A stretch of DNA of 64,000 nucleotides from Gammaproteobacteria bacterium (GCA_965247265.1 OZ252002.1:1962565-2026564), one strand, 5' to 3'. Positions 1,381 through 48,925 are shown, counted from the stretch's first letter. The notes: generated by a model from the sequence alone, not told the origin. Numbers and translations: made by a program.

Positions 1381-1444
1381 TAACTCTTTTTAATATCAAT
1401 CAGATAGTTAACTACTCAACTAACTTTAGACGTGATTTTGGCGA

Positions 1445-2687: not shown

Positions 2688-3996
2688 TCATGACCCGGCG
2701 TAGTGTCTCAACATTCATCACCACGGCGATTATCACCAGTACTGGCAACACCAGATTACTCACCGCACCCAGAAAGATAACGAACACGCGCACATCCCGC
2801 CCCATACGCAACCCGGCCTCGCCGCTAGCCGCAATGCGGTCACGCATCAAGTTGTCATATTTATCTGCCGTGTAACTCAGCATAAACGAGCCGATAATAG
2901 CCATGAAACCAGCTAGCAGAACCCAGCCAATCGCTTGCTCCGCAAGGCAATGCCAGGTCAAGCCGAACAGCAGAAAAGCGTCGGCATACCGGTCCAGCAC
3001 CGCATCGAACCAGCTTCCAAAACCGCTGCTTTGGTATTTGAGTCTGGCCACTTCACCGTCGCAACCGTCGACGATCGATGCGAATTGAGCCAGAACACCA
3101 CCAGTGAGGAGGGCAATATACCCGCCCAACGCAAAAAGTCCGGCTGCTAATAGGGAACACACAAATGAGAACATCGAAATCTGATTAGGGGTAATATCGA
3201 AATTCACCAAATGACGTGACAAACGCGCGGAGATCGGGCGGTTTAAATAACGTGCTACCGGACCGTCGTTTGCCTTGTCGCGGAGACGATTCAGCAAGGC
3301 TTTCTCTGCTCTTTGGAAAGATTGGGAATCATCCACATCAATCCAGAAATCCGACGTCGGGATCGCCTTGGCGTGTCCTTTAGCGGCCAAAATCCGCACA
3401 GCCCCGGACAAACTGTTATCACAATTTCCTTTGCTTTGATCCAGTGCCCTAAATATAGCGGGAGTACATAGGAAAACACCGGTGTCGAAGCCATTGAAGT
3501 CGGACAGTCCCTTACTGATATCATGGATCTTTCCGTCCACCATCTTGACCCGAGTGACATCCCCCATATCGACCAGGGGATTGCAGGTATCGCTGTCCAC
3601 CACCAGTGCAATCTCCTCCCTGGGCAGGGTAAGCGTTGTCAATGTACGAACGAGTGATGGCTCGAACAGATGATCCGCCATTAGCAACAAGAAAGGATCC
3701 TGCAGGTGCTCTCGCGCTTTGAGTACCGAAAGGCCGTTGTCTTTGTCCCAATCGTCATTTACCAGCGGAGTGATCCGAATCGCAAGACGTTCCGCCAGCC
3801 GTTCGAGAAAAAGGCGAACCCGCTCGCCCTGGTAGCCGATAACGACATAAAATTCCTCCCCCCGCCCCACGGCCTCCAGGACAGTGCGGATAACACGTTC
3901 AATCAGGGGGATCCCGAGGATGGGGATGAGAGGCTTGCTGTCACCCCTCTGCTGCAGCCGGCTGCCTTTGCCCGCTGCGATGATCAGGCACTTCAT
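2671..3996 (-). CDS. bifunctional nucleotidyltransferase / CDP-alcohol phosphatidyltransferase (IPCT/DIPPS-like; CTP:inositol-1-phosphate cytidylyltransferase fused to di-myo-inositol-phosphate-phosphate synthase)
   Basis: N-terminus MKCLIIAAGKGSRL... is a sugar-phosphate nucleotidyltransferase fold. The C-terminal 190 aa are a multi-TM CDP-OH transferase with the D-G-x2-AR...G-x3-D-x3-D motif (DGCDGEVAR...FDAVLDRYAD). Same domain order as archaeal IPCT/DIPPS. Confidence 0.65.
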   Translation of the reverse strand: MKCLIIAAGKGSRLQQRGDSKPLIPILGIPLIERVIRTVLEAVGRGEEFYVVIGYQGERVRLFLERLAERLAIRITPLVNDDWDKDNGLSVLKAREHLQDPFLLLMADHLFEPSLVRTLTTLTLPREEIALVVDSDTCNPLVDMGDVTRVKMVDGKIHDISKGLSDFNGFDTGVFLCTPAIFRALDQSKGNCDNSLSGAVRILAAKGHAKAIPTSDFWIDVDDSQSFQRAEKALLNRLRDKANDGPVARYLNRPISARLSRHLVNFDITPNQISMFSFVCSLLAAGLFALGGYIALLTGGVLAQFASIVDGCDGEVARLKYQSSGFGSWFDAVLDRYADAFLLFGLTWHCLAEQAIGWVLLAGFMAIIGSFMLSYTADKYDNLMRDRIAASGEAGLRMGRDVRVFVIFLGAVSNLVLPVLVIIAVVMNVETLRRVMIVRDA

Positions 3997-5116
3997 GCAC
4001 TCTCCCCAGTTTATTATTGATAAAGGCTTCTGTCATACGATGGGCTTCATCATCAGTGAACTGCCGTGACGGATGTTTGCAGAAATAGGCCGATGGTGCT
4101 TCCAGTACGCCACTCTGGCCCCGGTCCAATGCCAGCTTGGCACAACGAATCATATCGATGGCCACGCCCGCCGAGTTGGGCGAATCCTCCACCGACAGAC
4201 GCATCTCGAGATTCATTGGTATGTCGCCAAACAGTTTGCCTTCCATGCGCACGAAGGCGATCTTGTTGTCATTCTGCCAGGGTACATAGTCACTGGGACC
4301 GACATGGATATTGTCGTCGTCTAAACGGCGGTCGGTCACGGCCTGCACCGCCTCGGTCTTGGATTCCTTTTTGGAAGCCAGACGGTGGCGGTTCAGCATG
4401 TTTAGAAAGTCGGTATTGCCGCCAGTATTAAGTTGATAGGTGCGTTCCAGCTTAACCCCTCGTTTGGCAAATAGGTCAGTCAGTACGCGGTGGGTAATGG
4501 TTGCCCCCAACTGGGATTTAATATCATCGCCGATAAGGGGCAGTCCGGCCTCTTTAAAATGATCTGCCCACGCTCCTTCAGGATCGCTGGCGATGAAGAC
4601 CGGGATATTGTTGACAAAGGCCAAACCGGCCTTCAATGCGCAGCCGGCATAAAACCGGGTCGCCTCCTCAGAGCCGACAGGCAAATAGTTCACCAGGACT
4701 TCCGCACCGGATTCCTTGAGCGCTTTGATAATTTCTTCTTCCGCAGGCTCTGGTTCATCGGCCAGAATAAAAGTACGTTTTTCGTCGTAATTTTTCATGT
4801 GGTCCGAAAACCCGTCGAGGATTCTGCCCATCCGTACAGTGACACCGGATTCAGGGAGTTCAGAACAGAAAACCGTCGTGCAGTTGGGTGGGGAATAAAT
4901 GGCCTCGTGCACATCGACGCCGACTTTTCGCTGGTCGGTATCGAAGGCCGCGACGACCTCTATGTCGCCGGGTTTGTATCCGCCAATCTCCCAATGCATC
5001 AGACCGATGGCCTCCAGCGGCGTCTTTTCCCGATAGTAGTGGAGGCCCTGTATTAAAGAGCTCGCACAGTTTCCAATCCCGATGATTGCAATCTTAATCT
5101 TATTCAAATTCATCAC
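3941..5116 (-). CDS. myo-inositol-1-phosphate synthase (archaeal/bacterial short type, 391 aa)
   Basis: N-terminal Rossmann motif IAIIGIGNCASSL. The central region aligns with short archaeal MIPS around GDDIKSQLGATITHRVLTDLFAKRGVKLERTYQLNTGGNTDF. Overlaps the downstream IPCT/DIPPS start. Confidence 0.7.
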   Translation of the reverse strand: MMNLNKIKIAIIGIGNCASSLIQGLHYYREKTPLEAIGLMHWEIGGYKPGDIEVVAAFDTDQRKVGVDVHEAIYSPPNCTTVFCSELPESGVTVRMGRILDGFSDHMKNYDEKRTFILADEPEPAEEEIIKALKESGAEVLVNYLPVGSEEATRFYAGCALKAGLAFVNNIPVFIASDPEGAWADHFKEAGLPLIGDDIKSQLGATITHRVLTDLFAKRGVKLERTYQLNTGGNTDFLNMLNRHRLASKKESKTEAVQAVTDRRLDDDNIHVGPSDYVPWQNDNKIAFVRMEGKLFGDIPMNLEMRLSVEDSPNSAGVAIDMIRCAKLALDRGQSGVLEAPSAYFCKHPSRQFTDDEAHRMTEAFINNKLGRVHEVPDHRSGQRQPAAAEG

Positions 5117-5496
5117 TTGCCTCTCATTATTGTTGTGTTTAGCTAACTGCTATCTTGTCGAAGATAGCATACTCGCGATCACTACCCCGTATGCCGGCAA
5201 AAATGGCGCCAACTTTTTTTGCTGCTGGCACCCCAGCCCAGATCTGCGCCGCGAAAGGTGGTCAGAGTTGGTCCTTTCATCTTTAGTTCTTTGAAAATAA
5301 TAAATTGAAATCTGAACACAATCACGAGGCGCTTTGTGAGTCAGTTCAAAAAATATATCGCTCAGCGAACTGGGCGTGTCACAGCGTGACATCGATACGT
5401 CCATTTAGACGTTATTGACGTCGATTATCGTAGATTTTAATGTAACTGTGTTATATATGATTATGTTCTAATTAAATATATATTTGATACTTGCTG

Positions 5497-5534
5497 TTTT
5501 GCAGGCCGCTACATAACCACTCTGCCATCTAGCC
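5497..5534 (-). repeat. partial tRNA-Cys copy (5' half, about 37 nt, 2 mismatches); candidate att-site remnant
   Basis: TTGCAGGCCGCTACATAACCACTCTGCCATCTAGCC matches positions 1344-1380 of the intact tRNA-Cys. Same orientation. Confidence 0.7.
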
Positions 5535-8486: not shown

Positions 8487-9558
8487 ATGATTGGCGAAGG
8501 CAAACATGGCTTATGGCGCGTTCAAGATAACGGCACCATTCGTGAATACCTTAAAGAAGGCAAAAAAGGCTTACCACCTGATGCAGATTTGTTTAATAAG
8601 AAAAATTTCGCAACCATTAATAATAATTACGCGGCCTACCTGCCTAAAGAAAGCTGGAGTGGATACAAACATCCACATCAAAAAATAGCTGATGATGGTA
8701 ATTTAAACTTTATTGATTTACCACTCAATCATCCAAAGTATAAAGGGAAGTATGCAGACCATGTACCTATCGATCTTCCTCACTTTTACTGCACCATGTC
8801 CGCCAACCGATATCCGTACGCAAAACTTCCGATCGATCATGCATTCAATCAACCTGCAGCAGGAGATATTGGCCCACTTGGAAAACGAGCAGGACTGGAT
8901 GTAAATGAGCTGTACACCAAAGTATTGCGTCTTGAGCAGTTTCCCGATGCACGCGCATGGGTCAATGTTGGCGGAAAAGATGAACACTCGGTTGATTGGC
9001 AACCCGTAAATGTCAGTAAAACTAATACGGAATTTTATTTAATAGAACGTCCATTTTTTAATGAGCCCTATTTGTTTGTGACTGCGGTTTTTGATAATGC
9101 TGATAATCAGGATTTTCAATATGTTCGACCAGATGGCCCCTACTATGACTCTGTAAAATCCAAAAAAGTTAAAACAGAAGTCACTCACGAACCTCGTTTT
9201 CATCTTGAAAACGGTAAGGTAGCCAAAGCAAAAGGATTACCCATTTATGGTGTGCATCATCCTAATCGTGCTGCATTTGGTGGAGGGGCGCATGCCCACT
9301 TAAAGGCGGCGACTGGAGCAACTATCCGAAAACGACAGGTGCTGCAGGTTGGCCTACCAACTACGAAGAAATTACACCATTGTGTGATGGCGTACTGGTC
9401 GATATTAAATTCTTCGCTAATCTATCGGGTCAAGATTGGAATGATCCCACAACTTATCTAGCCAATGCCGGAACAGGTTCAAAAGAAGTTACGTACCACA
9501 TGGAGCCAGGCGAGTATGGCGTCTATACCGATCCGTATAACGTTGAGCGTGGGGTGTG
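8487..9558 (+). pseudogene. hypothetical protein of about 357 aa, frameshifted near 9290 (G-run); no recognisable domain
   Basis: ORF 8487..9461 reads through. A +2 frame continues with coding-like text (GGDWSNYPKTTGAAGWPTNYEEITPLCDGVLVDIKFFANLSGQDWNDPTTYLANAGTGSKEVTYHMEPGEYGVYTDPYNVERGV) to 9558. Sits at the AT/GC compositional boundary. Confidence 0.35.
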
Positions 9559-10019
9559 ATGACCAACCGCCGCAGGGCGTCCAGATCGCATCGATCGAGG
9601 GAAGGAGCGAGAGGGTATCGGGTCCGGCTAGCGAACCCATCCGGATCCGTCGCGGCGCATGGCGGCCCGGCTCCGAACGCCATCATCAAGCGTTTCAAAG
9701 AGGAGGAGTATCCTCAGAAGCAGCGCGTAGTGCTACCGTTACGGCGGCGTCCAGTTCCAAGAGCGCATCAGCCTTGAGCATATCCCTTATGGCTCGCCTC
9801 CTGGACGGCAACGCATGATCCGCACCGGAGTCGCGCAATGCCTGCTGCCGCTCAGATCCGGAAACCGACTACACGATCCCGCTTGAATGCGGGCACAGTA
9901 AGCATGTACGGTGGGGTCGACATCGTAGACTGCCGCCGACGAAGCGAGATGATGGGCAGAAAAGAAACCACGGCACCGCCCGCGCCGTCGCCGTTTATGG
10001 GGGACTACATAATCAGAAT

Positions 10020-11846
10020 CTACTTGTTCCCCGGCAAGAGAACGCAAGGATCGGTGCGCGGAGTCAATATTGTTGTCCTCTGCCTTGCTCTCGTGACACT
10101 GACGCGAAAGTTTTGCCGTGCCTGATCATTGATCTGGTTACGTGAATTGAAGCGTACGATACGGTCGGCATTGAAGGGCGGCTTCCTTCCCCTTTGTTGG
10201 ATCGGCCAGCCCTCGAAAATGATCACCTCGTCGAACTGTTTCCCCTTGACTTTGTGCATGTTCATCGCCACCACGCCGGAGTCGGGCTTGGAATTGGTTG
10301 AGAAGTGCTCCTGCGTGAACGCCTGCCGAACGATCGCCAGCGCGTTACGGTAGGCTCCGTTGTCCCGCCAATCCTGAGATAGATTCTGCCTGAGCTGCAT
10401 CCCGCGCTCCAGCACACGGATGTTCCGAACTTCCTCTGCAATTGCCCTCAGCCGCGAACAGGCCCTGATTCAGATGATGCCGTATCGTGCGCCAGTCCTT
10501 GTCGGGTTCACCCGTGAGTGGCAAGGCGCGTGACTCATCGTAGACAGCGCGCACAGAAACAAGAATGCTATTCTGTTTGATGCCCTTGCCACATGCCTGT
10601 CGGGAAAGCCAGTCGTCGTAAGCGTTCTGAATTTTCCTCGCTTGCGTGAGGTCTCCCTTTGTCGGCTTGTCGCCGCCTTTTCCATGATAGTAGCTCTTTA
10701 TGATCTCGATAAATCGCTCGAAGTGGTGGCCGTCGGTATCGGGCTGCATCAAGAAGGCGACAATCTCCGCGCCAAGAATTGCAGCTTCCATATCAATGGC
10801 AGCCGTATGCCGAATCTCGGTCATTCCGCCCGGTGGTGATCGGAACGTGTCAGAGACGACGCGTGTCAGTTTTTTTGTTGGCACAAGAATGGCAATTGAC
10901 CAATCCTCCCGTGCGCTTTCGACGAGGCGCGTTCTGGCTTGGTATGTAGTCGTAACGAGACCAGATAATGTTTGATTTTGGTTTGGCGGATAGACACATA
11001 CTCGAACCCCCGTATAGGGCTCATTGCGGAATGTACCTTCGAGAATGTCATTACCAAATGCCGCGATGTCGGTGCCAGGACTGCGGTGATTGTCTGTGCC
11101 GAGATCCACCTCGGTCAGAGCGAAAGCCTCCCTGAAGTGGTCCAGGCGTTCAGGGTCCGCGCCAATCCAATCATAGATGCGCTGCTCTGGGTCGGCGAGC
11201 GCGAGCAGAGTGCTAAAATCGCCAAGCGCCTTTACGACATCCCATTGTTTGGCATTCGTGTCCTGGAACTCGTCGAGAATGATGACGGGGTATTTCGCGG
11301 CCACCAAGCGGCGGATGCGCGTGCTGCCATGAAGAATATTCCCGACCAGGGGCGCATAGAGATCGAAGCAGACGCGGCCCTCTTCCGACGCGAGGCGATA
11401 CAGCTCGTTGTTCTCGCGTAATTCCTTTTCCGTTTTTTGGTACGGACTGAGCTTTGCATCAGGGCCATATTCGCTGCGGATCTCGGACAGGGCAACCGCC
11501 TCCCCTGCCGTCGCGAGCACCGAGAGCCGCCTCGCCAGGCCGACGAGATACCCGTGGGCCTTGAGGATGCGCCAGAAGAAGGCGTGGTAGGTATCGACGT
11601 CGAGCCGCTGTTTCTGATCGCGGGGATATGGCGCTCGTGTTCGATGGCCTCGATGACGCGAAAGACGGTCGCTCGGGCGAAGCTGAGAAACAGAACCTGC
11701 TGAGCAGGGCGGAGATCCCGTTCGGCAATTCGCCCCGCTTTCAGGATGGAGACGGTCGTCTTGCCGGAGCCTGGCCCTCCTGTGACGAGGAGATGTCCTT
11801 CGGCTTCCATTATGTCCAGTTGTCTCTCAGAAAGTTGCACTTGCAC
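10020..11846 (-). pseudogene. UvrD/PcrA-family helicase (Gabija GajB-like), split into 3 ORFs by frameshifts
   Basis: Walker A GGPGSGKTT (11232..11846). Motif II VIILDEFQDTN (10345..11520). C-terminal ...[14 protein letters not shown] (10020..10415). The start overlaps the end of the upstream OLD-family gene. Confidence 0.6.
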
Positions 11847-13707
11847 CTACTTCCGGTTCGACCCCAACCGGATCGACCGGCTCCGGCACACCACCGTCGT
11901 CATTGCCAGCCGGAGTAGGCTCGCATATCTCCTTAAGCGAAATGCAGGTATCCCGTAACCATTGCGGGGTTTCGTCCTCGGAACATTGCGCAAGAAAGTC
12001 GGCAATGCCCCATTCAGCCTTCTTCCACTCGAAATAGTCGCGCAGCGCCGCTTGAGCATCAGCTTCCGGATCCGGATGATTTTTCTGAAGGTGTTGCGGC
12101 CAGACAATCAGCCTCACGAAACGCCGCAGAGCGTCATCACGCGTGTTATTCAGGATAAGGTTCTCGAAGCCACTTTCGCCGTGCATGAACAAGGCAACGA
12201 CCTGCGCTCTGATATGATCTCTCCTTTCGTCGGGTTGCCTGTCGCAAAGGGCGAAGGTCTGCTTGTCGAGGCCACTATAGAGATGGGCTAGATCAGCAAT
12301 GTTCGTCTCGCCGCCGGCGTCAATCGTACAGATACCTAGCGCTTCCAGAGAGGAATAGGTGTCGGGATTCAGCTCCGCCATTCGTCGGCACGCGACGGGA
12401 AAAGATGCGGCTTCTGTCGCACCTTCGGCAATGAGAATGCGGCGTGCCAGAAGCCCTCACAAAATCGAGTGTGAAACTCTTGGCGATAGCGCTTTGGCTT
12501 AACGCTCTCGGGAAGAGTGATTGTGGTCTGTCCACGTACCCCGTCTGCATCCCGCGCGAGCACAACTGTCTCGTCGAGAGAAAATTCTTCAAGGACATAC
12601 GGCGAATGGGAAGTAAAAAGTGCCTGCGATGCGAGCTTGCGAACTTCGTGAACAATACGTTTCTGTGCATAGGGTGGAATAGCGGTTTCTGGTTCCTCCA
12701 TTGCAAAAATTACGTTCTGCTTGTCCTCGGCAATTTGGGACAGCATTGCCAGAACAAGCATGTTAATCGTCCCGGTGCCTTGTCGGTAGAATGGTGCTGC
12801 GTGGCTGCCTTCTCCCGTGGCGATAAAGGCCGTGATTACCTTCCGCAGATGCTCGCGCGTAAGGTTGGACACCTTAAGGTGTGGCGTGACTCTCCACTCT
12901 TTCGGCACGTATTTCTTAAGGGCTGCATTGATGCTTTCCAGTACACCGGAGATGCCGAGTTCGGGATCGCTTGCGACGGAAAGGTCTTCGAGCGTACCGA
13001 TCGTATCTTCCCACATCTGCGGCCTGACCTCTTTCAGGCGCAGAATGATGTCAAGGAGACTGCCGCGTTCCAGGCTCAGAGCGCGCGAACCTGTGCGCAG
13101 CGAACGCAGATAGAGGAAGCCGCAGATCTGCTTGTCCCTTTTCGAGAACCCGACGGGCGTGTCATTCTCAGAAAGACTGCGTGTGAAATAGGTCTTCCCC
13201 TCGAAATCGTCTTCCTCCGCCTCGTACCGGCCGATGAAAGTGACCCGTAGCGCGTCGGTGATAGGGGCGGCATCAACCCCCCGCCGGGATGGGATCGTTG
13301 TAGAGCGTGTTGGTCGCCGTATCCCAGAACTCAATGTAGTCGCCGAACCTGTCCCGTTGTTCCTCGGTCAGGGCCGTGATCGTCACCTCAATCTCGATGC
13401 AAGGCGGTTCCATCTCAATGACTTCCGCCGTCGAATCCGCGGGGACACCAGCGTCTCCGGCGTTGACCGCGGCTGGGTTGACGGCAGCATCTGGCGTGTC
13501 AGGAACATACTGCCCTCTAAAGAAATCATGCTCGTCAATAGGCGGCGTACGATTCAGTCGATCCGGCCCGAGCACAAGATCTAGTGCTTCGAAGATTGTG
13601 GTTTTACCAGTATTGTTGTCTCCAATGAAGACTGCGTGATCAGGAAGAAGTAATGTTGCAGATCTTATGCCACGAAAACTTGCTATGTTGATTTGACATA
13701 CTCTCAC
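11827..13707 (-). pseudogene. OLD-family ATP-dependent endonuclease (Gabija GajA-like: ABC-type ATPase plus TOPRIM), split into 3 ORFs by frameshifts
   Basis: N-terminus MRVCQINIASFRGIRSATLLL...IGDNNTGKTTIFEAL (Walker A). Mid ...QGTGTINMLVLAMLSQIAEDKQNVIFAMEEPETAIPPYAQKRIV (signature/Walker B/D-loop). Acidic TOPRIM-like C-terminal ORF 11827..12381. Confidence 0.6.
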
Positions 13708-13753
13708 GAATGCCTCCTTTGGCGTCGGCGATATCGACGGCGGTGTTACTGGT

Positions 13754-14130
13754 TCAAAAACCGATACGTCTGATGCCGTCGACTACGTCGAAATGGCTAT
13801 CGTTGCTCAGAATCGCGAGAGCGTGCTGACGGGCGAGCGCGGCGATCCAGGCGTCATTCGGCGGTATAGGATTGCCGAGCCGCTTCAATTGCAGCCGGAT
13901 ATCTGCATACGCATCCGCCGTCGCTGAGGTGACGGCCGCGATTTCGGCCAGCGGCAAATATCGACGAAGCCATTCCTCGTAGCGGCTTCGATGACGCGAT
14001 TGACGAATGCCGAAAAGTACTCGCCAAGTACGACGCTCGGAACGACCAATCGGTCGGCGGATCGAAGAGGAGCCTCGACGGCCGCGAGCCCTTCCGCCCA
14101 GGCGGAGAGGGCATTGGTATCGAGGATCAT
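13754..14130 (-). pseudogene. vapC: PIN-domain toxin VapC, frameshifted
   Basis: N-terminal ORF MILDTNALSAW... and C-terminal ORF ...NDAWIAALA...DSHFD lie in different frames. Confidence 0.55.
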
Positions 14131-14393
14131 GCGATATCTTCGGGGGCGAGCCTCTCGAATTCCTCCTCGATCACATTAAGGATACGGTGGTTTTCGTCCG
14201 AAAGGTCAGATAGCTCGCCGAACCCGGCCATCCAGGGAGCATCGGTTTCGCCGGCGTGGGTGTCGTTCGCGCATTGGCGGACCTGTGCCTCGAGCGCTTC
14301 GTTGAAAAAGTGTTTCAAAGTGATACCACGGCCGGCGGCAAGAGCCTTGGCCCGGCGGAACGTGGCGTCGGGAACCTCAATGGCCGTTTTCAT
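14127..14393 (-). CDS. vapB: VapB-type antitoxin (88 aa)
   Basis: Small ORF immediately upstream of and overlapping the PIN toxin. N-terminal DNA-binding-like region. Confidence 0.5.
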   Translation of the reverse strand: MKTAIEVPDATFRRAKALAAGRGITLKHFFNEALEAQVRQCANDTHAGETDAPWMAGFGELSDLSDENHRILNVIEEEFERLAPEDIA

Positions 14394-14425
14394 TTCACCA
14401 TATTCCCATATTTACGGATTTGTCG

Positions 14426-15630
14426 TCAATCCGTCCCGGTTGGTGACGCATCGCTGTGCATGGAGGACATTTCGGCGGTGCCCGAGAGATCACCACCGAT
14501 GCTGCCTGTGATGCGTGACGCGGCGTTCCGGATCGAATCCCGCGCCAAGTGAGCATAGCGGGCGGTGGTCTGCACTTGGGTATGACCCAAGAGCTTCCCT
14601 ATCATGGTGAGGCATTCGCCGAGCGCCAGCGCGCGCGAAGCGAACGAATGACGCAAGTCGTGGATGCGCACATCCTCCAAGGCCGGCACGCTTGCGAATG
14701 CGCCGCCAGGGACGTTGCAGGTCGGTCAGATGCGAACCGGGGAGCTTTCCGGCGATGACCCACGGGTTGCCCCGTCGCGGGGAATGGATGACAGTACGGC
14801 GCGGGCCTCTGGCCCGAGCGGCACCACCCTTCCGCCGGTCTTGGTATCCGGCAGCTCAAGGCAGTCTTCCTTGACGTACTCCCAGCGCAGATCTCGGATC
14901 TCCGACATCCGGCAGCCGGTCAGGAGCAGCAGCCGGAAGGCGGACACGGCCGAGAGCATCTCCACCTCGGCCTCGCGAAGAATCTCGCCGAGCCGAGCCG
15001 TCTCTTCCGTCGACAGGAACCGCTCTCGTTGGTGTTCCTTGTACCGCTTCACATGCCGGCAGGGTTTGGAACCATTCCGGCGCCAACCCCACACCTCGGC
15101 AAGGTTAAACATCTTCGACAATACTCCGAGTGTGCGGTTGGCCTGATAGGGCTTGTCCCGAAGGCCGTGATGAAGGACCGCGATGTCCTTGCGTTCGACC
15201 GCTGCGACCTGCAATTCCCCGATCACGGGGTCGATGAAGAGCTTCACCGAGCGGCGGTACTCCGTCTGGGTGCTTGGCTTGCAATGGACCCGGACGTACT
15301 CAACCAGAAACCGGCTGCACAGGCCCGCCATCACTGGCTCGGCCTTGCGCCGCGACCTGGACTCGCGGGGTCGATCCCTTTCTTGGCGTCGGCCAGGATC
15401 TGAAGCGCCTGTCCACGCGCCTCGTCTGGGCTCAACGGGTTGTGTGCCCCGATGGTGAACCAGCGCAGCTTGCCGGCGACACGGGTCTGGACGACGTAAT
15501 ATTTCCGCCCCGATCGCCTTACCCGGACACCGAACCCGGTCAGATCGCCATCCCAATAGACGGCGTCGGAGCCGTTGGCCTTCAGGGCATCGACAGATCG
15601 CTTCGTGAGGCGGTGCAGGCCGTTCGCCAT
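14426..15630 (-). pseudogene. int: P4-type tyrosine integrase, 3 fragments (2 frameshifts)
   Basis: N-terminal arm-binding domain ...SVDALKANGSDAVYWDGDLTGFGVRVRRSGRKYYVVQTRVAGKLRWFTIG (15331..15630). Core (14726..15340). Catalytic C-terminus HDLRHSFAS...LLGHTQVQTTARYAHL (14426..14689). Confidence 0.7.
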
Positions 15631-15807
15631 GACGGAAATCCTCTTGACCGGGAAGAGGGAGTTTGTCAGATTGGCAAACAATTTGTATCAAACCAGAGCG
15701 CGCTCAGGCGTAGCCTTGTCGACACTGAAACACATTAACTACAAGAAATATATGGATTTATTAAACTTCGGAGACTTGTAGAGCATTTCTGTCGTGCATA
15801 GGTGTCG

Positions 15808-15855
15808 AAACTCATAACCTGAAGGTCGTAGGTTCAAATCCTACCCCCGCAACCA
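15808..15855 (+). other. tRNA-fMet 3' fragment (anticodon loop through CCA, about 47 nt); attachment-site remnant
   Basis: CTCATAACCTGAAGGTCGTAGGTTCAAATCCTACCCCCGCAACCA is near-identical to the E. coli tRNA-fMet 3' half. No matching 5' half or acceptor 5' strand lies upstream. Confidence 0.75.
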
Positions 15856-15859
15856 AAAA

Positions 15860-15894
15860 GGCCCGTAACTTCACATGGTTACGGGCTTTTCCCT
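15860..15894 (+). terminator. rho-independent terminator following the tRNA fragment
   Basis: GGCCCGTAACttcacatgGTTACGGGCTTTTCCCTTTT. Confidence 0.6.
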
Positions 15895-16041
15895 TTTCGC
15901 AGCCATGACGCGATTAGCGTCGTGGACGCACAGTGGACGCATGAGGGAGCATAATCCTGCACGTTTCTGCGCGACACCGCGCAGGCCGCCCGACTGAGAT
16001 CGCGCGACGTTGACGGCTTACCCGCTGACCTTGGCAGACGT

Positions 16042-19000
16042 TCAGAACCGCATCTGGCCGCGCAGCATCACGGCATGATCCGCGGCAGCATCGTTGGCCG
16101 GCTCACGGCGCTCGCCCTCGAGGCTGAGGTTGAGCGACGACCCGATCTCGAAGCGGCTGCCGATCCAGTAGCGTTGTGACCCTTCGCCGGCCAGCGAGAA
16201 CCCGCCATAGGGCGTCAGCAGCCCGTGCCCGCCGAGCGCGCCGAAGCCATAGCCAAGCTCGCTGTCCAGCCGCATTTGCGGAACGTTGTCATTGGCCGCC
16301 CTATCGTCGCTCGCCAGTTCGGCGACGTCCTGATCCCACAGCCGATCCACCCCGCTCGCTGTCTCGCCCCAGGTCGGGAAGAGGCTGAACGACAGTCCCC
16401 GCCCTTCGGCGCTCGGGTCGAGGCGGACCGAGCCGCCAAGACCCCATTCCTGGTAATTACTCTGCCCCGTCAGCACCCGGCCGTGTCCCTCGACCGTCAG
16501 GCCCGCGGCTGGGTCGCGATAACGCAAGCTGCCGACGATCTCGATGCCGGTGCCCGTGATCCCGTCGCCCCCGTCATGGCGCAGACCCAGCTCCAGGGAC
16601 GGCGTCAGGGACCCGCCCGAGGCCAGCGCCTGCTCGTGGCTGCCCTCCAGCGCCAACCGCAACCGCCAGGCATTCACCGTCTGCTCTTCGATCAGGCCGT
16701 CGTCGCCCTCGACCTCGACCTGCGCCCACGAGGCCTCGCTCCGGAGCTCGAGCGCCATCGTGCCGCCCGCGATCGGTGATTCATCGGTCATCAAGGGACC
16801 GCTCGCTCCCGCCGCCGCCGTCTTGAGCGTCGTGTCGCTGCGCCTTACCGGGTAGTCGGGGTCGCCATCGCGCACCTGCGCGTCCTCGATCTCGATATCG
16901 CCCCACCCATAGCCCACCGTCGCCCAGAGACCGAGACCCTGTGGCGAGGTCCAGCCCAGATAGGGATGAACGCTGGTCATCCGGCTCTCATAGTCGCCGC
17001 GCACCGGCGACGATCCGGTACCGTCGCTATAGTCGAATTCGCCGATCGAGCGCGACAGCGCGAGCCCGGTCAGGAGATCCTCGCGCAGGCAGCCGTCGAT
17101 GCCGAGCTGGCCGGTCAGCACCGTGCCGTCCCAGGCGAAGGCGGACTCCGTGCTCTCCAGCACCTGCCGCTCGCCCCGGCCCCACACCACCGGCCCGCCG
17201 GCGCCGGGTGCCATGCCGTCATTGGCCGCTGCCGCGAGCGGCAGCCGGAAGGACGAGCCAGCCAGCACATCGGCGAGGGTGAGCGCATCGTCCTCGATCG
17301 CCGGCGCGTTGGATCGCAGCGTGTCATAGAGTGTCGATCCCCCGGCCAGCGTGTAGGCGGCCGCCTGTTTGCCGCACGCCTCGTCCATGCGCGCACCGAT
17401 CGCCCGGTTGGTGACATCGGCGAGGGTCAGCGCGTGCTTGGAGAGAATCTCGTCGTTCAGGCGCCGGAAGCGCGCCTGGACCACGGTGCCTTCAGCGTCG
17501 ACGATGGTCAGGGTGGCCCTGGCCGGTGCGCCTTTCGCCACGTCCGTGGGCAGCGTACCGAAGCCCAGCGCCACCCTCACGTCGTGGAAATTGTCGTCTT
17601 GTTTGGCCTGTTCCGTGGCCTCGATGGTGAAGCTCCTGGTGGTGTCGCCCGTCTCCTCGAATTTGAGCGTGACGGTCCCGGTCGCAGGATCCAAGACATC
17701 CGGATCCGTAACCGTAACCGTATAGTCGGCCGCCACGGTCCGGCCCCGCGGGGTCACCGTGATCGGGATCTCCAGCGCGTCGGCCGCTTGCTTGCTCAGC
17801 GTCACCGTCACCCTGACCGGATCGCCGCCCTCTTCGACCGCATAGGCCGCGGCGCCGAAGCGCACCAAATACACCCGCACCACGCTAATGGCCATGGCGT
17901 ACGCCACGCTGTCGCTCTCGCCGTCACTGACCTTGAACCCGAACGTCGCGAAAGGTTCGCCGTGCGCGTTCTCCGGCGGAGTGTAGAGGAGCTTGCCCGC
18001 TTCAAGGTCGGCCGGCGTCACCTGCCGGGGTAGGATGTCGCTGGTGATGGCCGCGCCGTTAAGCGACAGCGTCCCCCGGTCATTCCCCTCGTCATCCACG
18101 GGCGGCGAGGCGATCTTCACGTGGTGCAGCGTGTCCACTTCGTCGTCTGAATAGGCGAAGTCTTTCATCGTAAAGCGGTACGGTTCGTTGTCGTACGTGG
18201 ACACCTCTTTGCTGGAACCCGTGGGGGGGTTGTTGAACGGCGTGGCGTTCGCGGCGGATGCGTCGCCCTCGCCGGCATCGTTCATCGCGCGCACTGCCAA
18301 CGTGTACTCGGTGCCGTTTTTCAGGCCGGGAACGGTGTATCCGGTGGCATTGGTCTGGTGATGGGCGCTGTTGGGGATGTCGGTGAAGTTATCGTCACCG
18401 TTGATGCTGACCTGGTAGCCGGTGATGGTGCTGTCGTTCGGATCGGCCCAGGTAAGTGTAACCTTGCGGTAACCCGGCCCGACCGAGGAAATCTCCGGGG
18501 CGGCCGGCGGCGCAATTGGCCTGGCGGTCACGGTGGATGCCGGGCCGTTACCGGGATCGTTCACCGCGCGCACCGCAAAGGTGTACTCGGTGCCGTTGGT
18601 CAGGCCGGTCACGGTGTATCCGGTGGGGGGCGCATCGGGGTCGGTGACGGCGATGTTCGCCCACGCAGTGTAGGTGCTGTCGTTGCTGCTCCTCACTTTC
18701 GAGCGGACTTGGTACTTGGTGATCGATCTGTCGCTCGGATCGTTCCACGCAAGCACCACCTGGCCGTCGCCCGGCGTGGCCGAGGAAATCGTCGGGGCGT
18801 CCGGCACCGCAATCGGTGTGGCCCCCACGCTGGAGGCTTCGCCGTCACCGGAAGCGTTCACTGCGCGCAGCTCAAACCCGTACGGGCTGCCGTTAGTCAG
18901 GCCGGTCACGGTGTAGGTGGTGGTGGTCGCACTGCTGCCGCCGATGTCGCTCCAGTCGCCGAAATCGGCGCCGCTCACCCTCTGCCGGTACTGATACCTG

Positions 19001-22000
19001 GTGATGCTGCTGTCGTTCGGATCGTCCCAGGTCAGCACAGCCTGCCCGTTAGCCGGCATGGCCGCGAGGTTCGCCGGGGGGGCCGGCACCGGCACCGGCA
19101 TGGCGTCCACGCTGCCCGCTCTGCCGGTGATCACGGTGTCGTCCCCGGACGTATCCACCGCCTGCACCGTGAAGGTGTAGTCGGTGCGATTGGTCAAGCC
19201 GGGAATGAGCAGGGTCGTCTGATCCCCCGAGCCGGGCGAGAGAAACGTTTCCAAGAGCGGGTCCACGGAGTTGATGGGCGTGTAGTAGGTGCTGACCTTA
19301 TAACGGGCGATCCCGGGGTCGCCCCTGTCCCACGTCAGCATGACCTGGCCCTCGCCCGGCGCCGCCACCAGACCGGTCGGCGCGGGCCAGAGCGGCGTGG
19401 CGGTTTCGGGGGACGCCGCGCCGGCACCGGACAGATTCACCGCCCGCAGCTCGAACGTGTATTCGGTGCCGTTGGTCAGGCGGGTACCGGTGCCGTCGCT
19501 CAGGACGGTCACGGTGTGGGTGGTGGTGGCCGCACCGCTGCTCTCGATATCGATGAAGGTCGTGCCGCCGTCGGTGCTGTACTGGTATCCGCTGACCATG
19601 TTGTTGTCCGGGTCGTCCCAGGACAGTGTGACCTGACGGTCCTCCCCCCCCTCGGCCATGAGGCCCGTCGGGGCGGCCGGAAGCGTCGGCGCGGTCACGG
19701 TAGACGCCGCGCCCACACCGGAAGCGTTCACCGCGCGCAGCTTGAACGTGTACTCGGTGCCGTTGGTCAGGCCGGTCACGGTGTAGGCGAGGGTGTTGTC
19801 CGTATCGTTTTCGCTGATGTCGGTGTCGTCGATATCGGCGAACGTCTCGCCGCCGTCGGTGCTGACCTGGTACCCGGTGATTGTGTCGTCGTCCGGATCG
19901 TCCCAGGCCAGCGCAACCTCGGTGGCGCCCGCCGTGGCCGAGAGCGCCGTCGGAGCGGCCGGCACCGCCATCGGCGTGGCGGTTACGGTGGCTGCGAGGC
20001 CTTTACCCGCATCGTTTTCTGCGCGCACGGCAAACGTGTACTCGGTGCCGTTGGTCAGGCCCATGACCGTGTGTGCGGTGGTCTCCTTGTCGCTGTTCGG
20101 AATCCCGCTGTAGTTGTCGCCGCCGTCGGTGCTGACCTCATAGTCATAGTTGCCGATGGTTGCATCGTTGCTCGGCTTGCTCCAGCTCAGCGCCACCTGG
20201 CCGTCACCCGGCGCGGCCGAGAGGTTCTCCGGGGCGTCCGGGATCGCAATCGGCATGGCGTCCACGGTAGACGCCGGGCCCTCACCGGTACCGTTCCCCG
20301 CGCGCACCTCAAACGTGTAGGTCGTGCCGTTGATCAGGCCGGTCGCGGTGTATGTGGTGGGGTGCGTGGGGGGCGTCGCAAAGGGGTTGGGGCTGGTGAT
20401 GTCCGCCCAGGGGGTGTAGGTGCTGTCGTTGCTGTCCTTCACCTTCCAGCGGACCTGGTACTTGGTGATCGTGATATTGCCCGGATCGTCCCATTTCAGC
20501 ACGACCCGGCTGTCACCCGGCGTGGCCGAGGAAATCGTCGGGTCGGCTGGCAGCGGCGGCGCCACCGGTGTGGCTTTCACGCTGGCTTTCACGCTGGTTT
20601 GGGTGCCGCCGGCTGTGGTCGACCACACCGTGAAGGTATATTCGGTGCCGTTGGCCAACGGATGATTGGGATCGAGGCCAATGGAATCGTCAACCTTCGA
20701 CGGCGATGCGCCAAAGGAGAGGAAAGATGACCAATTTACTCCGGGGCCTTTGGTTGTGAGCGTATAGTCTTTGGCTCCGGGGACGCCCGTCCACTCCAGA
20801 TGGACCCGGCCGTGGTCCGGCGTCGCCACAAGATTCGGCGCGGGCCAGAGCGGCGTAGCTTTATCGCTGGACGCCGCGCCCTCGCCGGAAGCGTTCACCG
20901 CCCGCAGCTCGACCGTGTGCTGCCTGCCGTTGCTCAGGCCGGTCACGGTGTGTGAGACGGTGGTCGCACCGCTGCCGTCGATGTCGGTCCAGTCGCCGAA
21001 AGCGCGGTTGCCCCTCTTCTGCCGGTATTGGTACCCGGTGATCGGGACGTTGCCCGGATCGTCCCAGGTCAGCGCCACCTCGCCCCCGTCGCTGCCCCGC
21101 GTGGCCGCGAAGTTCGCCGGGGCGGCCGGTTTCGCAATCGGCGTGGCGGTCACGGTGGCCCACGGGCCTTTACCGGAAGCGTTCTCTGCGCGCACCGCCA
21201 AGGTGTACTGGGTGCCGTTGATCACGATGTTACCGCCACCATCGCTCAGGAAGACTACGGTGTATTCGGTGGTGGTCGCGCTGCTGTCACCAATGGAGAC
21301 GAAGGTCGTCACGCCGCCGTTGGTGCTGTAGTCGTACCCGCTGATCGTGAGGTTGTTCGGATCGTCCCAGGTAAGCAGAACCTCGCCGTCACCCGCCGTG
21401 GGCATGAGGCCCGTCGGCGCGGCGGGCAGAGCCACCGCCGGTGTGGCGGTCGCGGTAGATGCCGCACCGGTGATCTGGAAATTGGTGAAGGTTCCCGACG
21501 CCGCCCGCACTGTGAAGGTGTAGTTGGTGCCGTCGGTCAACCCGCCAACGGATACGGTCGTCTTATTCCCCGATCCGGACTCGTGCGCATTATCCGAAAC
21601 CTGAGTGTTGGTGCCGGTGAGCGTCGTCCGGACCGCATAACGGGCGATCCCGGAGTCGCCCGTGTCCCACTGCAGCACGACCCGGCCTTTGTCCGGCACC
21701 GCCACCAGACCGGTCGGCGCAGGCCACAGGGGCGTGGCAGTCACGCGGGGCGCCGCGCCGGGACCGGAATCGTTCACCGCGCGCACCGCCAACGTGTACT
21801 CGGTGCCGTTGGTCAGGCCGGTCACGGTGGTGGTGGTGGTGGCCGCGCTGCTGCCCTCGATATCGATGAAGTTCGTGCCGCCGTTGGTGCTGACCTGGTA
21901 TTTGGTGATCGTGTCGTCGTCCGGATCGGCCCAAGTGAGCGCAACCTCCTGGCTACGCGCCGTGGGCGAGAGATTCGCCGGGGGGTCCGGCACCGGCGCC

Positions 22001-24405
22001 GGCGTGGCGATCTTGCTGGAGGGCAGGCCGGTGATGCCGGACGTATCCACCGCCCGCACCGTGAAGGTGTATTCGGTGCCGTTGGTCAAGGTGGAAATGG
22101 TGGTGGTCGTCGTGTTCCCCGATCCGGCCGGGACGTCCAAGATCTCAGGCGTCGCGCCGCTGCTGGTGGCCTGCCAATGGATCCGATAATGGGTGATCAA
22201 GGCGTTGCCCGTATCCCACTGCAATATGGCTTGGCCGTCGCCCGGCTCCGCCGCCAGATTGGTCGGTGCCGGCCACAGTGGCGTGGCGGTAATGGCGGCG
22301 GCCGTACCGCCAGCTAAATCGTTAGCCGCGCGCAGCGCCAACGTGTGTGCGGTTCCGTTGGTCAGGCCGGTCACGGTGTGTTCGAGGGTGTTGTCCGTAT
22401 TGTTTTCGATGATGTCGTTGCTGTCGATATTGGTGAAGATCGTGCCACCGTCGGTGCTCACCTGATATTTGGCGATCGTGCTGTCAGCCGGATTGTCCCA
22501 AGTCAGAGTGGCCTTGCGGTCTTCGCCCTGCGTGACCGAGAGGTTCGCCGGGGCGGGCCACAGGGGAATAGCATCGGCGTTGGCCGGATTGCCGTTTCCG
22601 GAAGCGTTCACCGCGCGTACCCACAATGTGTATTGGGTGCCGTTGGTCAGGCCGGTTACGGTGTAGGTGGTGGTGGTCCGACTGCTGCCGCTGATGTCGG
22701 TGAAGTTCCCGCCGCCGTCGGTTCTGACCTGGTACTTCCTGATGGTGTTGTCGCCCGGATTGATCCAGGACAGCGTGACTTGGCCGTCACCCACCGTAGC
22801 CGAGAGGCCCGTCGGTTCGGCCGGTGGCGCGCGCGGCGTCGCGGTCGCGGTGGATGCCTGGCCGGGACCGGAAATGTTCCTCGCGCGCAACTCGAACGTG
22901 TACTCGGTGCCGTTGGTCAGGCCGGTCACGGTGTGTTCGGTGGTGTCCACACCGCTGCCGTCGATGTCCGTCCACGCAGTGTAGGTGCTGTCGTCGCTGT
23001 CCGTCACCTTCGAGCGGACCTGGTATCTGGCGATCGTGTCGCCGCCCGGATTGGACCAGGACAGCGTGACCGCGCCGTCACCCGGCACGGGCAAGAGGCT
23101 CGTCGGGGCGGCCGGGAGCGTCGCGGCGGTCACGGTGGCTGCTGTGCCGTTGCCACCAACATTCTTCGCACGCACCGCAAACGTGTACGCGGTGCTGCTG
23201 GTGAGGCCGGTCACGGTGTATCCGGTGGGGGGCGCATCGGGGTCGGTGACGGCGATGTTCGCCCACGCAGTGTAGGTGCTGTCGTCGCTGTCCGTCACCT
23301 TCGAGCGGACCTGGTATCTGGTGATCGTGTTGTTGCCCGGATCGCCCCAGTTCAGCGTCACCTCGTCGGTTTCATCCGACGCGGCCGAGAGGTTCGGGGC
23401 GGCCGGAAGCGTCGCGGTGGTCACGGTGGCTGCTGCGCCGTTGCCGCCAACATTCTTCGCACGCACCGCAAACGTGTACGTGGTGCCGCTGGTGAGGCCG
23501 GTCACGGTGTAGCTGTCGGTGCTCGCACCGCTGCCGCCGATATCGGTCCAGTTGCCGTAGTCGCCCGCGCCTGTTTTCCGGCGATACTGGTACTTGGTGA
23601 TCGTGTTGTTGGCCGGATCGTCCCAGGTCAGCGCCACCTCGGTTTCACCCGGCGCGGCCGAGAGGTTCTCCGGCGCCGCCGGGGCCAAGGTGTTCCCCTG
23701 GACCCTGATTTGTATCGAAGTTGAGTACACACCGCCATCATCCTCCCAGCCCCCGGTTCTGTCAGACCGGCGCGTGTAGCGGTGATTGCCGATGCTCCAC
23801 TCTATGGCCTTGCCGGAATCTTCGTTGTCGTTAGCCGTCAGGTTCCAACGAGGTCTGGTTCCGCTACCGTCAAACGTCATGTGCACGAAGTATTGGGTGT
23901 TTCGAGTCAGAGTGGCTACGCCAGGGGCGGTGAATGTCTGGAGTCCCGTCCCTATGTTGGACGGGTTGGTCAAGGTGTATAAGACCGCGTTGCTCGGGCG
24001 ACCCGATCCGGTGGCGGCCCCCACCGTGACCGTCAGGGTTCCACTACCCGGAGCCCCCTGCGTGTCCAACTGGATACTTGATAGGTCGTAGCCCCGCGTA
24101 TTCTGGCCCGTGGTGAACCCCTGAGCACAGTCTAGTTCTATTATTGGTTCAGAACCTTGGACACATGCTGTATGGCCGTGGGTGGTTTGGCCCGTGTTGC
24201 TCACGAGGGTTTGGGCGTGCGCCGGCGCCGTGAAACCGAGCGGCAGCACCACGGCGGCGAGGACTGCGCCGATGATTACCAGCCGTGGGAAAGATCTCAC
24301 GGAAACTATCCCCCTGCACGCGCCTGTTCGACACAACGTCGGGCTACTTGCGTTTTTGGCGTGAATTATATCGTTATTCATGTTCGTCTGCTTGCTTGCA
24401 GTCAC
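16042..24405 (-). CDS. giant autotransporter adhesin (2787 aa): signal peptide, about 18-20 fibronectin type III repeats, Calx-beta-like region, C-terminal outer-membrane beta-barrel
   Basis: N-terminal signal peptide ...LGFTAPAHAQT. Repeats of about 95 aa of pattern LPAAP..L.A.....V.L.W..P....I..YQ.R.......T......TTYTVTGLTNGTEYTF.VRA.N..G.G. C-terminus alternates hydrophobic residues and ends ...AVMLRGQMRF (terminal Phe). About 68% GC. Plus-strand ORFs inside are artefacts. Confidence 0.8.
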   Translation of the reverse strand: MTASKQTNMNNDIIHAKNASSPTLCRTGACRGIVSVRSFPRLVIIGAVLAAVVLPLGFTAPAHAQTLVSNTGQTTHGHTACVQGSEPIIELDCAQGFTTGQNTRGYDLSSIQLDTQGAPGSGTLTVTVGAATGSGRPSNAVLYTLTNPSNIGTGLQTFTAPGVATLTRNTQYFVHMTFDGSGTRPRWNLTANDNEDSGKAIEWSIGNHRYTRRSDRTGGWEDDGGVYSTSIQIRVQGNTLAPAAPENLSAAPGETEVALTWDDPANNTITKYQYRRKTGAGDYGNWTDIGGSGASTDSYTVTGLTSGTTYTFAVRAKNVGGNGAAATVTTATLPAAPNLSAASDETDEVTLNWGDPGNNTITRYQVRSKVTDSDDSTYTAWANIAVTDPDAPPTGYTVTGLTSSTAYTFAVRAKNVGGNGTAATVTAATLPAAPTSLLPVPGDGAVTLSWSNPGGDTIARYQVRSKVTDSDDSTYTAWTDIDGSGVDTTEHTVTGLTNGTEYTFELRARNISGPGQASTATATPRAPPAEPTGLSATVGDGQVTLSWINPGDNTIRKYQVRTDGGGNFTDISGSSRTTTTYTVTGLTNGTQYTLWVRAVNASGNGNPANADAIPLWPAPANLSVTQGEDRKATLTWDNPADSTIAKYQVSTDGGTIFTNIDSNDIIENNTDNTLEHTVTGLTNGTAHTLALRAANDLAGGTAAAITATPLWPAPTNLAAEPGDGQAILQWDTGNALITHYRIHWQATSSGATPEILDVPAGSGNTTTTTISTLTNGTEYTFTVRAVDTSGITGLPSSKIATPAPVPDPPANLSPTARSQEVALTWADPDDDTITKYQVSTNGGTNFIDIEGSSAATTTTTVTGLTNGTEYTLAVRAVNDSGPGAAPRVTATPLWPAPTGLVAVPDKGRVVLQWDTGDSGIARYAVRTTLTGTNTQVSDNAHESGSGNKTTVSVGGLTDGTNYTFTVRAASGTFTNFQITGAASTATATPAVALPAAPTGLMPTAGDGEVLLTWDDPNNLTISGYDYSTNGGVTTFVSIGDSSATTTEYTVVFLSDGGGNIVINGTQYTLAVRAENASGKGPWATVTATPIAKPAAPANFAATRGSDGGEVALTWDDPGNVPITGYQYRQKRGNRAFGDWTDIDGSGATTVSHTVTGLSNGRQHTVELRAVNASGEGAASSDKATPLWPAPNLVATPDHGRVHLEWTGVPGAKDYTLTTKGPGVNWSSFLSFGASPSKVDDSIGLDPNHPLANGTEYTFTVWSTTAGGTQTSVKASVKATPVAPPLPADPTISSATPGDSRVVLKWDDPGNITITKYQVRWKVKDSNDSTYTPWADITSPNPFATPPTHPTTYTATGLINGTTYTFEVRAGNGTGEGPASTVDAMPIAIPDAPENLSAAPGDGQVALSWSKPSNDATIGNYDYEVSTDGGDNYSGIPNSDKETTAHTVMGLTNGTEYTFAVRAENDAGKGLAATVTATPMAVPAAPTALSATAGATEVALAWDDPDDDTITGYQVSTDGGETFADIDDTDISENDTDNTLAYTVTGLTNGTEYTFKLRAVNASGVGAASTVTAPTLPAAPTGLMAEGGEDRQVTLSWDDPDNNMVSGYQYSTDGGTTFIDIESSGAATTTHTVTVLSDGTGTRLTNGTEYTFELRAVNLSGAGAASPETATPLWPAPTGLVAAPGEGQVMLTWDRGDPGIARYKVSTYYTPINSVDPLLETFLSPGSGDQTTLLIPGLTNRTDYTFTVQAVDTSGDDTVITGRAGSVDAMPVPVPAPPANLAAMPANGQAVLTWDDPNDSSITRYQYRQRVSGADFGDWSDIGGSSATTTTYTVTGLTNGSPYGFELRAVNASGDGEASSVGATPIAVPDAPTISSATPGDGQVVLAWNDPSDRSITKYQVRSKVRSSNDSTYTAWANIAVTDPDAPPTGYTVTGLTNGTEYTFAVRAVNDPGNGPASTVTARPIAPPAAPEISSVGPGYRKVTLTWADPNDSTITGYQVSINGDDNFTDIPNSAHHQTNATGYTVPGLKNGTEYTLAVRAMNDAGEGDASAANATPFNNPPTGSSKEVSTYDNEPYRFTMKDFAYSDDEVDTLHHVKIASPPVDDEGNDRGTLSLNGAAITSDILPRQVTPADLEAGKLLYTPPENAHGEPFATFGFKVSDGESDSVAYAMAISVVRVYLVRFGAAAYAVEEGGDPVRVTVTLSKQAADALEIPITVTPRGRTVAADYTVTVTDPDVLDPATGTVTLKFEETGDTTRSFTIEATEQAKQDDNFHDVRVALGFGTLPTDVAKGAPARATLTIVDAEGTVVQARFRRLNDEILSKHALTLADVTNRAIGARMDEACGKQAAAYTLAGGSTLYDTLRSNAPAIEDDALTLADVLAGSSFRLPLAAAANDGMAPGAGGPVVWGRGERQVLESTESAFAWDGTVLTGQLGIDGCLREDLLTGLALSRSIGEFDYSDGTGSSPVRGDYESRMTSVHPYLGWTSPQGLGLWATVGYGWGDIEIEDAQVRDGDPDYPVRRSDTTLKTAAAGASGPLMTDESPIAGGTMALELRSEASWAQVEVEGDDGLIEEQTVNAWRLRLALEGSHEQALASGGSLTPSLELGLRHDGGDGITGTGIEIVGSLRYRDPAAGLTVEGHGRVLTGQSNYQEWGLGGSVRLDPSAEGRGLSFSLFPTWGETASGVDRLWDQDVAELASDDRAANDNVPQMRLDSELGYGFGALGGHGLLTPYGGFSLAGEGSQRYWIGSRFEIGSSLNLSLEGERREPANDAAADHAVMLRGQMRF

Positions 24406-48882: not shown

Positions 48883-48925
48883 TTAAATTATTATAACCTT
48901 TTATTTATTAAGTAATTTATTAAAT

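Follow-up and report, generated by a model that had tools for sequence, protein, structure and literature searches.

We analysed a 64,000-nucleotide (nt) stretch of a genome assembled as Gammaproteobacteria bacterium (GCA_965247265.1 OZ252002.1:1962565-2026564; hereafter the window), in which a defence islet at 9560-15895 carries on the minus strand, in this order, an integrase gene, the toxin-antitoxin genes vapB and vapC, and the Gabija-type genes gajA and gajB. The islet is probably the integrase-proximal end of a tRNA-fMet-targeting island from a high-GC proteobacterial donor, an end that was recently broken and that arrived as part of a larger donor piece. As the sequence-only reading of this stretch had claimed, all of its genes except vapB are pseudogenised, with eight insertions or deletions (indels) of 1-2 nt spread over the four enzyme genes (two each in gajA and gajB, one in vapC and three in the integrase gene). 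This is an ordinary, recently inactivated defence islet, not a new system, and it holds little new biology. Its genes are as follows.

15630->14426, minus strand: tyrosine integrase pseudogene (Arm-DNA-bind_3 plus catalytic domain), with three frameshifts and four segments
14127..14393, minus strand: vapB-type antitoxin gene (by position), intact, 88 amino acids (aa), ribbon-helix-helix (RHH) type; its stop overlaps the vapC start by 4 nt
13754..14130, minus strand: vapC-type PIN toxin pseudogene, with one frameshift in a T-run at ~14013-14021
13707->11827, minus strand: gajA pseudogene (class-2 OLD, ABC ATPase plus TOPRIM), with two frameshifts; PADLOC GajA, PDLC00086
11846->10020, minus strand: gajB pseudogene (UvrD-like superfamily 1 (SF1) helicase), with two frameshifts; PADLOC GajB, PDLC00104

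The earlier description of an OLD ATPase/TOPRIM gene in three fragments, followed by a UvrD-like helicase gene in three, was borne out by the order in which the open reading frame (ORF) pieces fall on the PADLOC profiles. Those of gajA cover positions 1-112, 114-392 and 416-580 of the 600 in PDLC00086, and those of gajB cover positions 2-70, 112-440 and 457-572 of the 574 in PDLC00104. After frame correction, GajA matched PDLC00086 at 858 bits over positions 1-580 and GajB matched PDLC00104 at 750 bits over positions 2-572, so that the placement in the GajA and GajB families, put forward beforehand as a claim open to refutation, holds over nearly the full length of both profiles. In Pfam, the corrected GajA matched AAA_15 (75.7 bits), AAA_21 (53 bits) and PF20469 OLD-like_TOPRIM (32.9 bits against a cut-off of 23.2, which the third gajA fragment by itself, at 19.1 bits, does not reach), while GajB matched UvrD-helicase (91 bits). 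GajA retains the motif GDNNTGKTT, which is invariant in the family, together with the TOPRIM acidic motifs, and GajB retains GGPGSGKT and DEFQD.

Gene order gave a second line of evidence. With the middle fragment of GajA as the query we recovered 80 genome loci, which span several phyla at 78-88% identity, and gajA followed by gajB is kept in nearly all of them, the exceptions being a few truncated contigs. The closest intact relative of GajA, P0130, has 82% aa identity and is encoded in locus L086 (ENA ERZ26167216 ctg426199), which matches the islet at 83% nt identity and is collinear with it over 3.68 kb, from the start of gajA to the end of gajB. The reported 20-nt overlap of the two genes stands if gajB starts at the GTG at 11846; with the start used in L086 it is 14 nt. 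By architecture, synteny and curated profiles, the locus is classed here as a putative Gabija system (class-2 OLD plus UvrD-like helicase), following the locus definition of PMC10568477. At the level of known structures the resemblance is more distant: a PDB sequence search with the frame-corrected GajA alone returned only the T. scotoductus OLD protein, weakly, and GajB matched PDB GajB with E ~1e-7 over about 70 residues. Gabija is marked by a 4:4 GajA:GajB complex, nucleotide-regulated DNA nicking and protection against phage. Full-length GajA and GajB are not encodable in the islet, where each gene carries two frameshifting indels.

The lesions were mapped by frameshift-aware alignment to intact relatives and then by nt alignment to L086 for gajAB and to locus L081 for the integrase gene and its leader. 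In gajA they are a G added to a G-run at ~13282 and a G lost at ~12457; in gajB, a T lost at ~11627 and two nt (GT) lost at ~10464; and in the integrase gene, a C lost at ~15371, one nt lost at ~14772 and an A gained at ~14676. The broken genes contain no in-frame stop codons and no large deletions. We also made a relative-rate count of aa changes at columns conserved in outgroups, taking the closest intact relative as the sister, and found similar numbers of window-only and sister-only changes in GajA (17 v 15), GajB (27 v 25) and the integrase (12 v 9). There was no drift of composition toward the AT-rich host, gajAB having 55.7% GC against 54.3% in L086. Because there are no stop codons, no excess of aa change at conserved sites and no AT drift, the genes appear to have been broken recently relative to the ~17% divergence from the nearest relative. 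The term "decayed" used for the islet in the sequence-only reading was therefore an overstatement, the damage amounting to only the eight small indels and one deletion in the integrase leader.

On a rival reading, the lesions are sequencing or assembly errors and the islet is an intact, working integrase-vapBC-Gabija island. This would suit lesions that are all 1-2-nt indels, several of them in G, C or T runs, in genes with no stop codons, no excess aa change and every catalytic motif retained; the genome also appears to belong to an uncultured lineage and so may be a long-read metagenome assembly. The window nevertheless holds an internal control in the 8364-nt ORF at 16042-24405 that adjoins the islet, since this ORF has twice as many homopolymer runs of five or more (21, against 10 in the islet) and is free of frameshifts. 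At the indel rate of the islet, the probability that this ORF would escape every hit is 4e-6, and under a uniform rate the probability that all eight hits would fall in the islet is 5e-4. Host housekeeping genes, among them those for UvrC and dihydroorotase, are likewise full length. Moreover, of the seven indels placed by alignment to relatives, four do not lengthen or shorten a homopolymer run of four or more, and the GT deletion, the A inserted between Gs, a T2->T1 change and the deletion of an 11-nt repeat unit are atypical of homopolymer miscalls. The internal control thus favours the original view that the frameshifts are real; error is unlikely, and true pseudogenisation is very probable.

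The features that tie the islet to tRNA-fMet lie upstream of the integrase gene.

15631..15810, minus strand: integrase leader, or island arm, conserved with L081-L084
15811..15855, plus strand: tRNA-fMet 3' fragment running from the anticodon loop to CCA, an attR-type island core
15857..15890, no strand assigned: G+C-rich hairpin between A-runs and T-runs (-21.3 kcal/mol, z = -5.7, 0/200 shuffles as stable)
15921..15958, no strand assigned: 38-nt remnant containing GTGGACGCA twice and resembling the region just upstream of a second, different integrase in L081

The tRNA fragment is identical at 45/45 positions to positions 33-77 of the initiator tRNA-Met(CAT) of L064 (Rhodobacter aestuarii; acceptor CGCGGGG...CCCCGCA) and lies about 180 nt upstream of the integrase start codon. 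Neither ARAGORN nor Rfam called a tRNA at 15811-15855, and a complete cloverleaf with a CAU anticodon and a C1-A72 acceptor end was not found there. The sequence-only reading had given it as a 47-nt tRNA-fMet 3' half with its own terminator; the fragment and the hairpin were both recovered, the former at a length of 45 nt. From its position and stability, the hairpin would be a bidirectional intrinsic terminator serving the tRNA fragment on the plus strand and the 2787-aa gene of the adjoining ORF on the minus strand. A Smith-Waterman search of both strands of the window found no second fMet copy and no attL, in line with the earlier statement that the 3' segment occurs there once.

Our comparison set comprised 86 fetched loci, including the integrase contexts L081-L085 and L086, the closest gajAB sister. 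In all five of L081-L085, the closest integrase loci, whose integrases share 77-90% aa identity with that of the islet, an fMet 3' fragment lies antisense about 190-230 nt upstream of the integrase gene, with a common core of 44-45 nt. ARAGORN found no complete tRNA within 10 kb in these loci, and the DNA beyond the fragment is unrelated. Three related Gabija loci are situated within or beside an intact tRNA-fMet gene, which is found about 140 nt past gajB in L064 and in L055 (Tabrizicola) and, within the island of L005 (Phreatobacter), about 5.6 kb upstream of gajA.

The integrase itself, once joined, matched Phage_integrase (72.7 bits) and Arm-DNA-bind_3 (53.4 bits), and its catalytic R, HxxR and Y residues survive in translation (TGCRMSEI, HDLRHS, ARYAH). 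Its closest intact relatives are P0010 (90%) and P0011 (87%), and thousands of intact relatives exist at about 81% identity. It had been described as a P4-type integrase in three fragments. A tyrosine integrase with P4-like architecture is indeed present, but it carries three indels and hence four segments, and its best phage match is only 35.5% identical (Aeromonas phage ST4), with P4 not among the top rows; against NCBIfam PRK09692 it scored 17.7 bits, where the cut-off is 434. The predicted protein can thus be called P4-like by domain architecture and tRNA association only.

The integrase gene and its leader together share 87.5% nt identity with L081. Within the leader, identity to L081 is 91% over 160 nt and ends exactly at the tRNA 3' end, and an 11-nt deletion at ~15671 has removed one of two tandem GTTTGCCA repeats. 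Tandem GTTTGCCA(A/G) repeats (window ~15660-15680) lie just upstream of the integrase start and are conserved in the four relatives L081-L084. They are candidate arm-type or operator sites of the integrase.

In the order of the plus strand, the islet would read as cargo, an integrase gene pointing away, the fMet fragment and the terminator, which is the layout expected for the attR end of an integrated island. For integration, the intact integrase would have used an attP with a 45-nt core of the same sequence as the 3' part of tRNA-fMet, recombining it with that tRNA gene, and the intact tRNA at attL would be expected beyond gajB, as in L064. The sequence-only reading had offered either a former tRNA-fMet locus or a captured attP. 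The first part agrees with the tRNA-fMet islands L081-L085, L064, L055 and L005, and the geometry fits attR better than attP. If the fragment were instead the attP of an excised circular element, captured by illegitimate or insertion sequence (IS)-mediated recombination, both flanks would be derived from the element. The 38-nt stretch beyond the terminator, which resembles the upstream region of another island integrase (32/38 positions match L081, 25 of them contiguous), and the IS3-family element at the right edge of the surrounding high-GC block are what such a capture might leave. However, the CCA end runs straight into a strong tRNA-type terminator, which is the situation at chromosomal tRNA loci, L081 ceases to be homologous exactly where the tRNA 3' end lies, and in five relatives the geometry is likewise that of the integrated state, with unrelated DNA past the fragment. 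The remnant belongs to a different integrase type and fits tandem island accretion in the donor, for which the tandem integrases and repeated fragments of L081 and L085 provide a precedent; it is possibly an orphaned arm or operator site left by such accretion. Capture of an attP is, in our view, improbable.

The islet forms part of a larger foreign block. The window is mostly 32-43% GC and the host ~38%, and a block of ~15 kb at ~9556-24450 stands out at 52-69%, with abrupt steps at ~9550 and ~24450; the contrast between the islet, at 52-63% GC, and the host is real. UvrC, RNase E and dihydroorotase, encoded by host genes in the window, are gammaproteobacterial, and the closest relatives of UvrC (66-83% identity) come from uncultured Gammaproteobacteria (including "MAG: Gammaproteobacteria bacterium"). 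The proteins of the window are singletons on clustering at 90% identity. The only tRNAs in the window are tRNA-Cys (1307-1380) and tRNA-Gly (28313-28388), called by ARAGORN with Rfam in agreement, and composition is heterogeneous across the stretch between them, the one observation that bears on the earlier suggestion that the islet became trapped in a larger tRNA-Cys/tRNA-Gly mosaic.

Such sharp compositional boundaries could also mean that the block does not belong to this genome, the assembly having made a chimeric join or taken in a contaminant contig, and the nearest integrase and gajAB relatives do come from a single unrelated metagenome assembly. This is nonetheless highly improbable: both junctions lie inside one contig of 2,764,221 bp, at the left junction a host-like ORF is interrupted in frame, stop codons lying at 9557-9562, the same tRNA-flanked region contains further foreign islands and an IS element, and the genes of the block, at only 82-90% identity to their nearest relatives, are no copy of a known co-assembled genome. 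The shared origin of those relatives (L081 and L082 for the integrase, at 90% and 87% aa identity, and L086 for gajAB, all from ERZ26167216) hints at a habitat in common with the donor lineage.

Because the attR fragment is inside the block and not at its edge, the block seems to have arrived as a larger donor piece and not through its own integrase. To the right of the attR junction the sequence is still foreign, holding the 38-nt remnant beyond the terminator and then the giant gene at 66% GC; given that remnant, it is not simply donor chromosome.

The islet also appears to be a mosaic of three modules (att-integrase, vapBC and gajAB), since homology to L086 covers only gajAB (13707 to 10033), homology to L081 covers only the att-integrase part (15854 to 14480), and the vapBC pair occurs in 0/86 fetched loci. 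A search of plasmid DNA with the whole islet returned only gajAB matches at ~68-70% and matches of tRNA length.

The vapBC module agrees with the earlier account of a PIN toxin split in two beside an intact antitoxin. The C-terminal piece of vapC matched PIN at 37 bits and the joined sequence at 66 bits over positions 1-119 of 120; against the NCBIfam VapC models it gave only matches below cut-off, the best at 54 bits against 140, and hence it has no curated equivalog. One candidate link, between a tRNA(fMet)-cleaving VapC and the adjacent tRNA-fMet attachment site, was rejected on this NCBIfam score, which is far below the cut-off. VapB alone matched no Pfam or NCBIfam model at thresholds. 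In a representative library there are 438 full-length relatives, each about 85 aa long; the family profile matches the PDB RHH antitoxins MazE6 (4e-6), CopG, VapB26 and VapB30, and members of the family match the Pfam ParD, CopG_antitoxin and RHH models. Relatives were absent from plasmids by tblastn, and a metagenome scan gave one 24-residue match. Since a 267-nt target would escape the islet indel rate with P = 0.67, the intactness of vapB carries no signal.

When intact, the RHH/PIN pair would have stabilised the island, and GajA and GajB would, by analogy with the Bacillus cereus system, have formed a nuclease-helicase complex cutting phage DNA. In that system GajA and GajB form such a complex and cut the DNA of phages (PMC10781630, PMC8136825, PMC10568477).

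Several observations weigh against the explanation of the islet as the recently broken, integrase-proximal end of an fMet island. Every lesion is a small indel, three or four of them lie in short homopolymer runs, and there is no substitutional decay, which is the same pattern that errors would give; on the assembled sequence, technical indels keep a small probability. The GajA family profile matches the B. cereus GajA chains over residues 1-48 only (E ~6e-7), and an AlphaFold2 model of P0130 built from 38 homologues had a predicted local distance difference test (pLDDT) score of 54, falling below 50 in the TOPRIM region, and was too poor for a test of the fold. At the right-hand end, the trace of another integrase's upstream region beyond the terminator complicates a simple donor-chromosome origin. 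The window contains neither attL nor an intact fMet tRNA.

One further feature covers the 460 nt to the left of gajB.

9560..10019, no strand assigned: spacer, 61% GC, from the left block junction (~9556-9562) to the gajB stop

The spacer shows no nucleotide or translated similarity to the 86 loci beyond two weak tblastx matches. It contains a weak terminator-like hairpin on the minus strand (9970-9988, z = -1.4) and a 16-nt identity between 9687-9702 and the start of the IS3 orfA at 24582; the latter is a weak and unproven hint that the spacer may be an IS remnant.

The left junction of the high-GC block cuts an ORF at 8487-9562 (324 aa, 42% GC, no family match), whose stop codons lie at 9557-9562 and which appears to resume in another frame at 9380-9559. 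At the right edge of the block lies an IS3-family transposase (24577-25724) with the usual programmed-frameshift layout of overlapping orfA and orfB; terminal inverted repeats were sought for this element and none were detected. The interior between the islet and this element is taken up by the minus-strand ORF at 16042-24405, which is unbroken, encodes 2787 aa in 8364 nt at 66% GC and adjoins the islet. In the predicted protein, a signal-like N-terminus is combined with at least 17 fibronectin type III repeats and with a C-terminus that resembles an autotransporter's and has Phe as its last residue, and the ORF is intact despite a neighbouring islet with eight frameshifts. It is conceivable, though rather doubtful, that selection in the host favoured losing the Gabija, PIN and integrase functions that had come in, on account of autoimmunity, toxicity or instability, and that the block was domesticated for this adhesin-like surface protein; plain neutral decay is the alternative.

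Other parts of the window also carry foreign or interrupted genes. Between the tRNA-Cys gene (minus strand, 1307-1380) and a 37-nt copy of the 5' half of that gene (5498-5534, 95%) lies a block of 53-56% GC that contains an HD-domain ORF, a bifunctional IPCT/DIPPS-like gene (2671-3996) and an inositol-3-phosphate synthase gene (3941-5116). No integrase is present in this block at 1307-5534. A duplicated tRNA 5' half is unusual, and di-myo-inositol-phosphate-type genes are unexpected in a low-GC gammaproteobacterium. Two overlapping minus-strand ORFs at 43028-43785 match successive stretches of the same profiles and are the pieces of one broken formylglycine-generating-enzyme/EgtB-like gene. 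As this pseudogene belongs to the host and lies outside the foreign block, the islet is not the only place in this genome where pseudogenes occur. At 47886-54702, a SagB-family peptide dehydrogenase gene (53023-54702) lies near ORFs weakly matching a peptide-modification cyclase and TPR proteins; this may be a modified-peptide gene cluster in which some ORF pairs overlap as if frameshifted.

Among the Gabija loci of the comparison set, eight from alphaproteobacteria (L013, L016, L018, L019, L021, L024, L026 and L052) carry, about 200 nt downstream of gajB and on the other strand, an integrase of ~40% identity, a layout that makes a compact integrase-plus-Gabija island and differs from that of the window.

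Few defence systems are as common as Gabija, and pseudogenised defence islands are nothing unusual. What the islet offers is a clean, datable example of a defence islet just after inactivation, with eight indels and no substitutional decay. It also indicates that an island end, with its attR inside a foreign block, can travel as passive cargo of a larger transferred fragment, and that the high-GC Gabija subtype and integrase family found here recur at tRNA-fMet sites. For annotation it serves as a warning, in that defence-finding tools run on called ORFs would miss the system, or would call it active once the frames had been naively corrected.

Compared with known systems, the toxin-antitoxin module resembles VapBC pairs with RHH antitoxins, such as VapBC26 and VapBC30 of Mycobacterium tuberculosis, in that the gene for a PIN toxin starts before that for a small RHH antitoxin has ended, the overlap here being 4 nt. 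It differs from those modules in that the toxin gene is frameshifted and the antitoxin family falls outside Pfam and NCBIfam at thresholds. The defence module has the arrangement of known Gabija loci, with an ABC ATPase plus TOPRIM gene followed by an overlapping SF1 UvrD-like helicase gene; unlike in B. cereus Gabija, gajA and gajB are each frameshifted twice, and their sequences are remote from those of the studied proteins. In L086, by contrast, gajAB is intact, is flanked by an Eco57I-type restriction-modification gene and transposases, and is accompanied by no integrase, vapBC or tRNA fragment. The fMet islands L081-L085 have intact integrases and other cargo (SIR2, GmrSD and a HEPN/DUF499 protein, all of them defence genes, and TrwC relaxases), and no fMet-associated related locus combines the integrase, vapBC and gajAB of the islet. 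L083, like the islet, has a toxin-antitoxin-like pair directly after the integrase gene. With L081-L085 as a group the islet shares the fMet core and its antisense placement upstream of the integrase gene, and with L081-L084 it shares the leader repeats as well.

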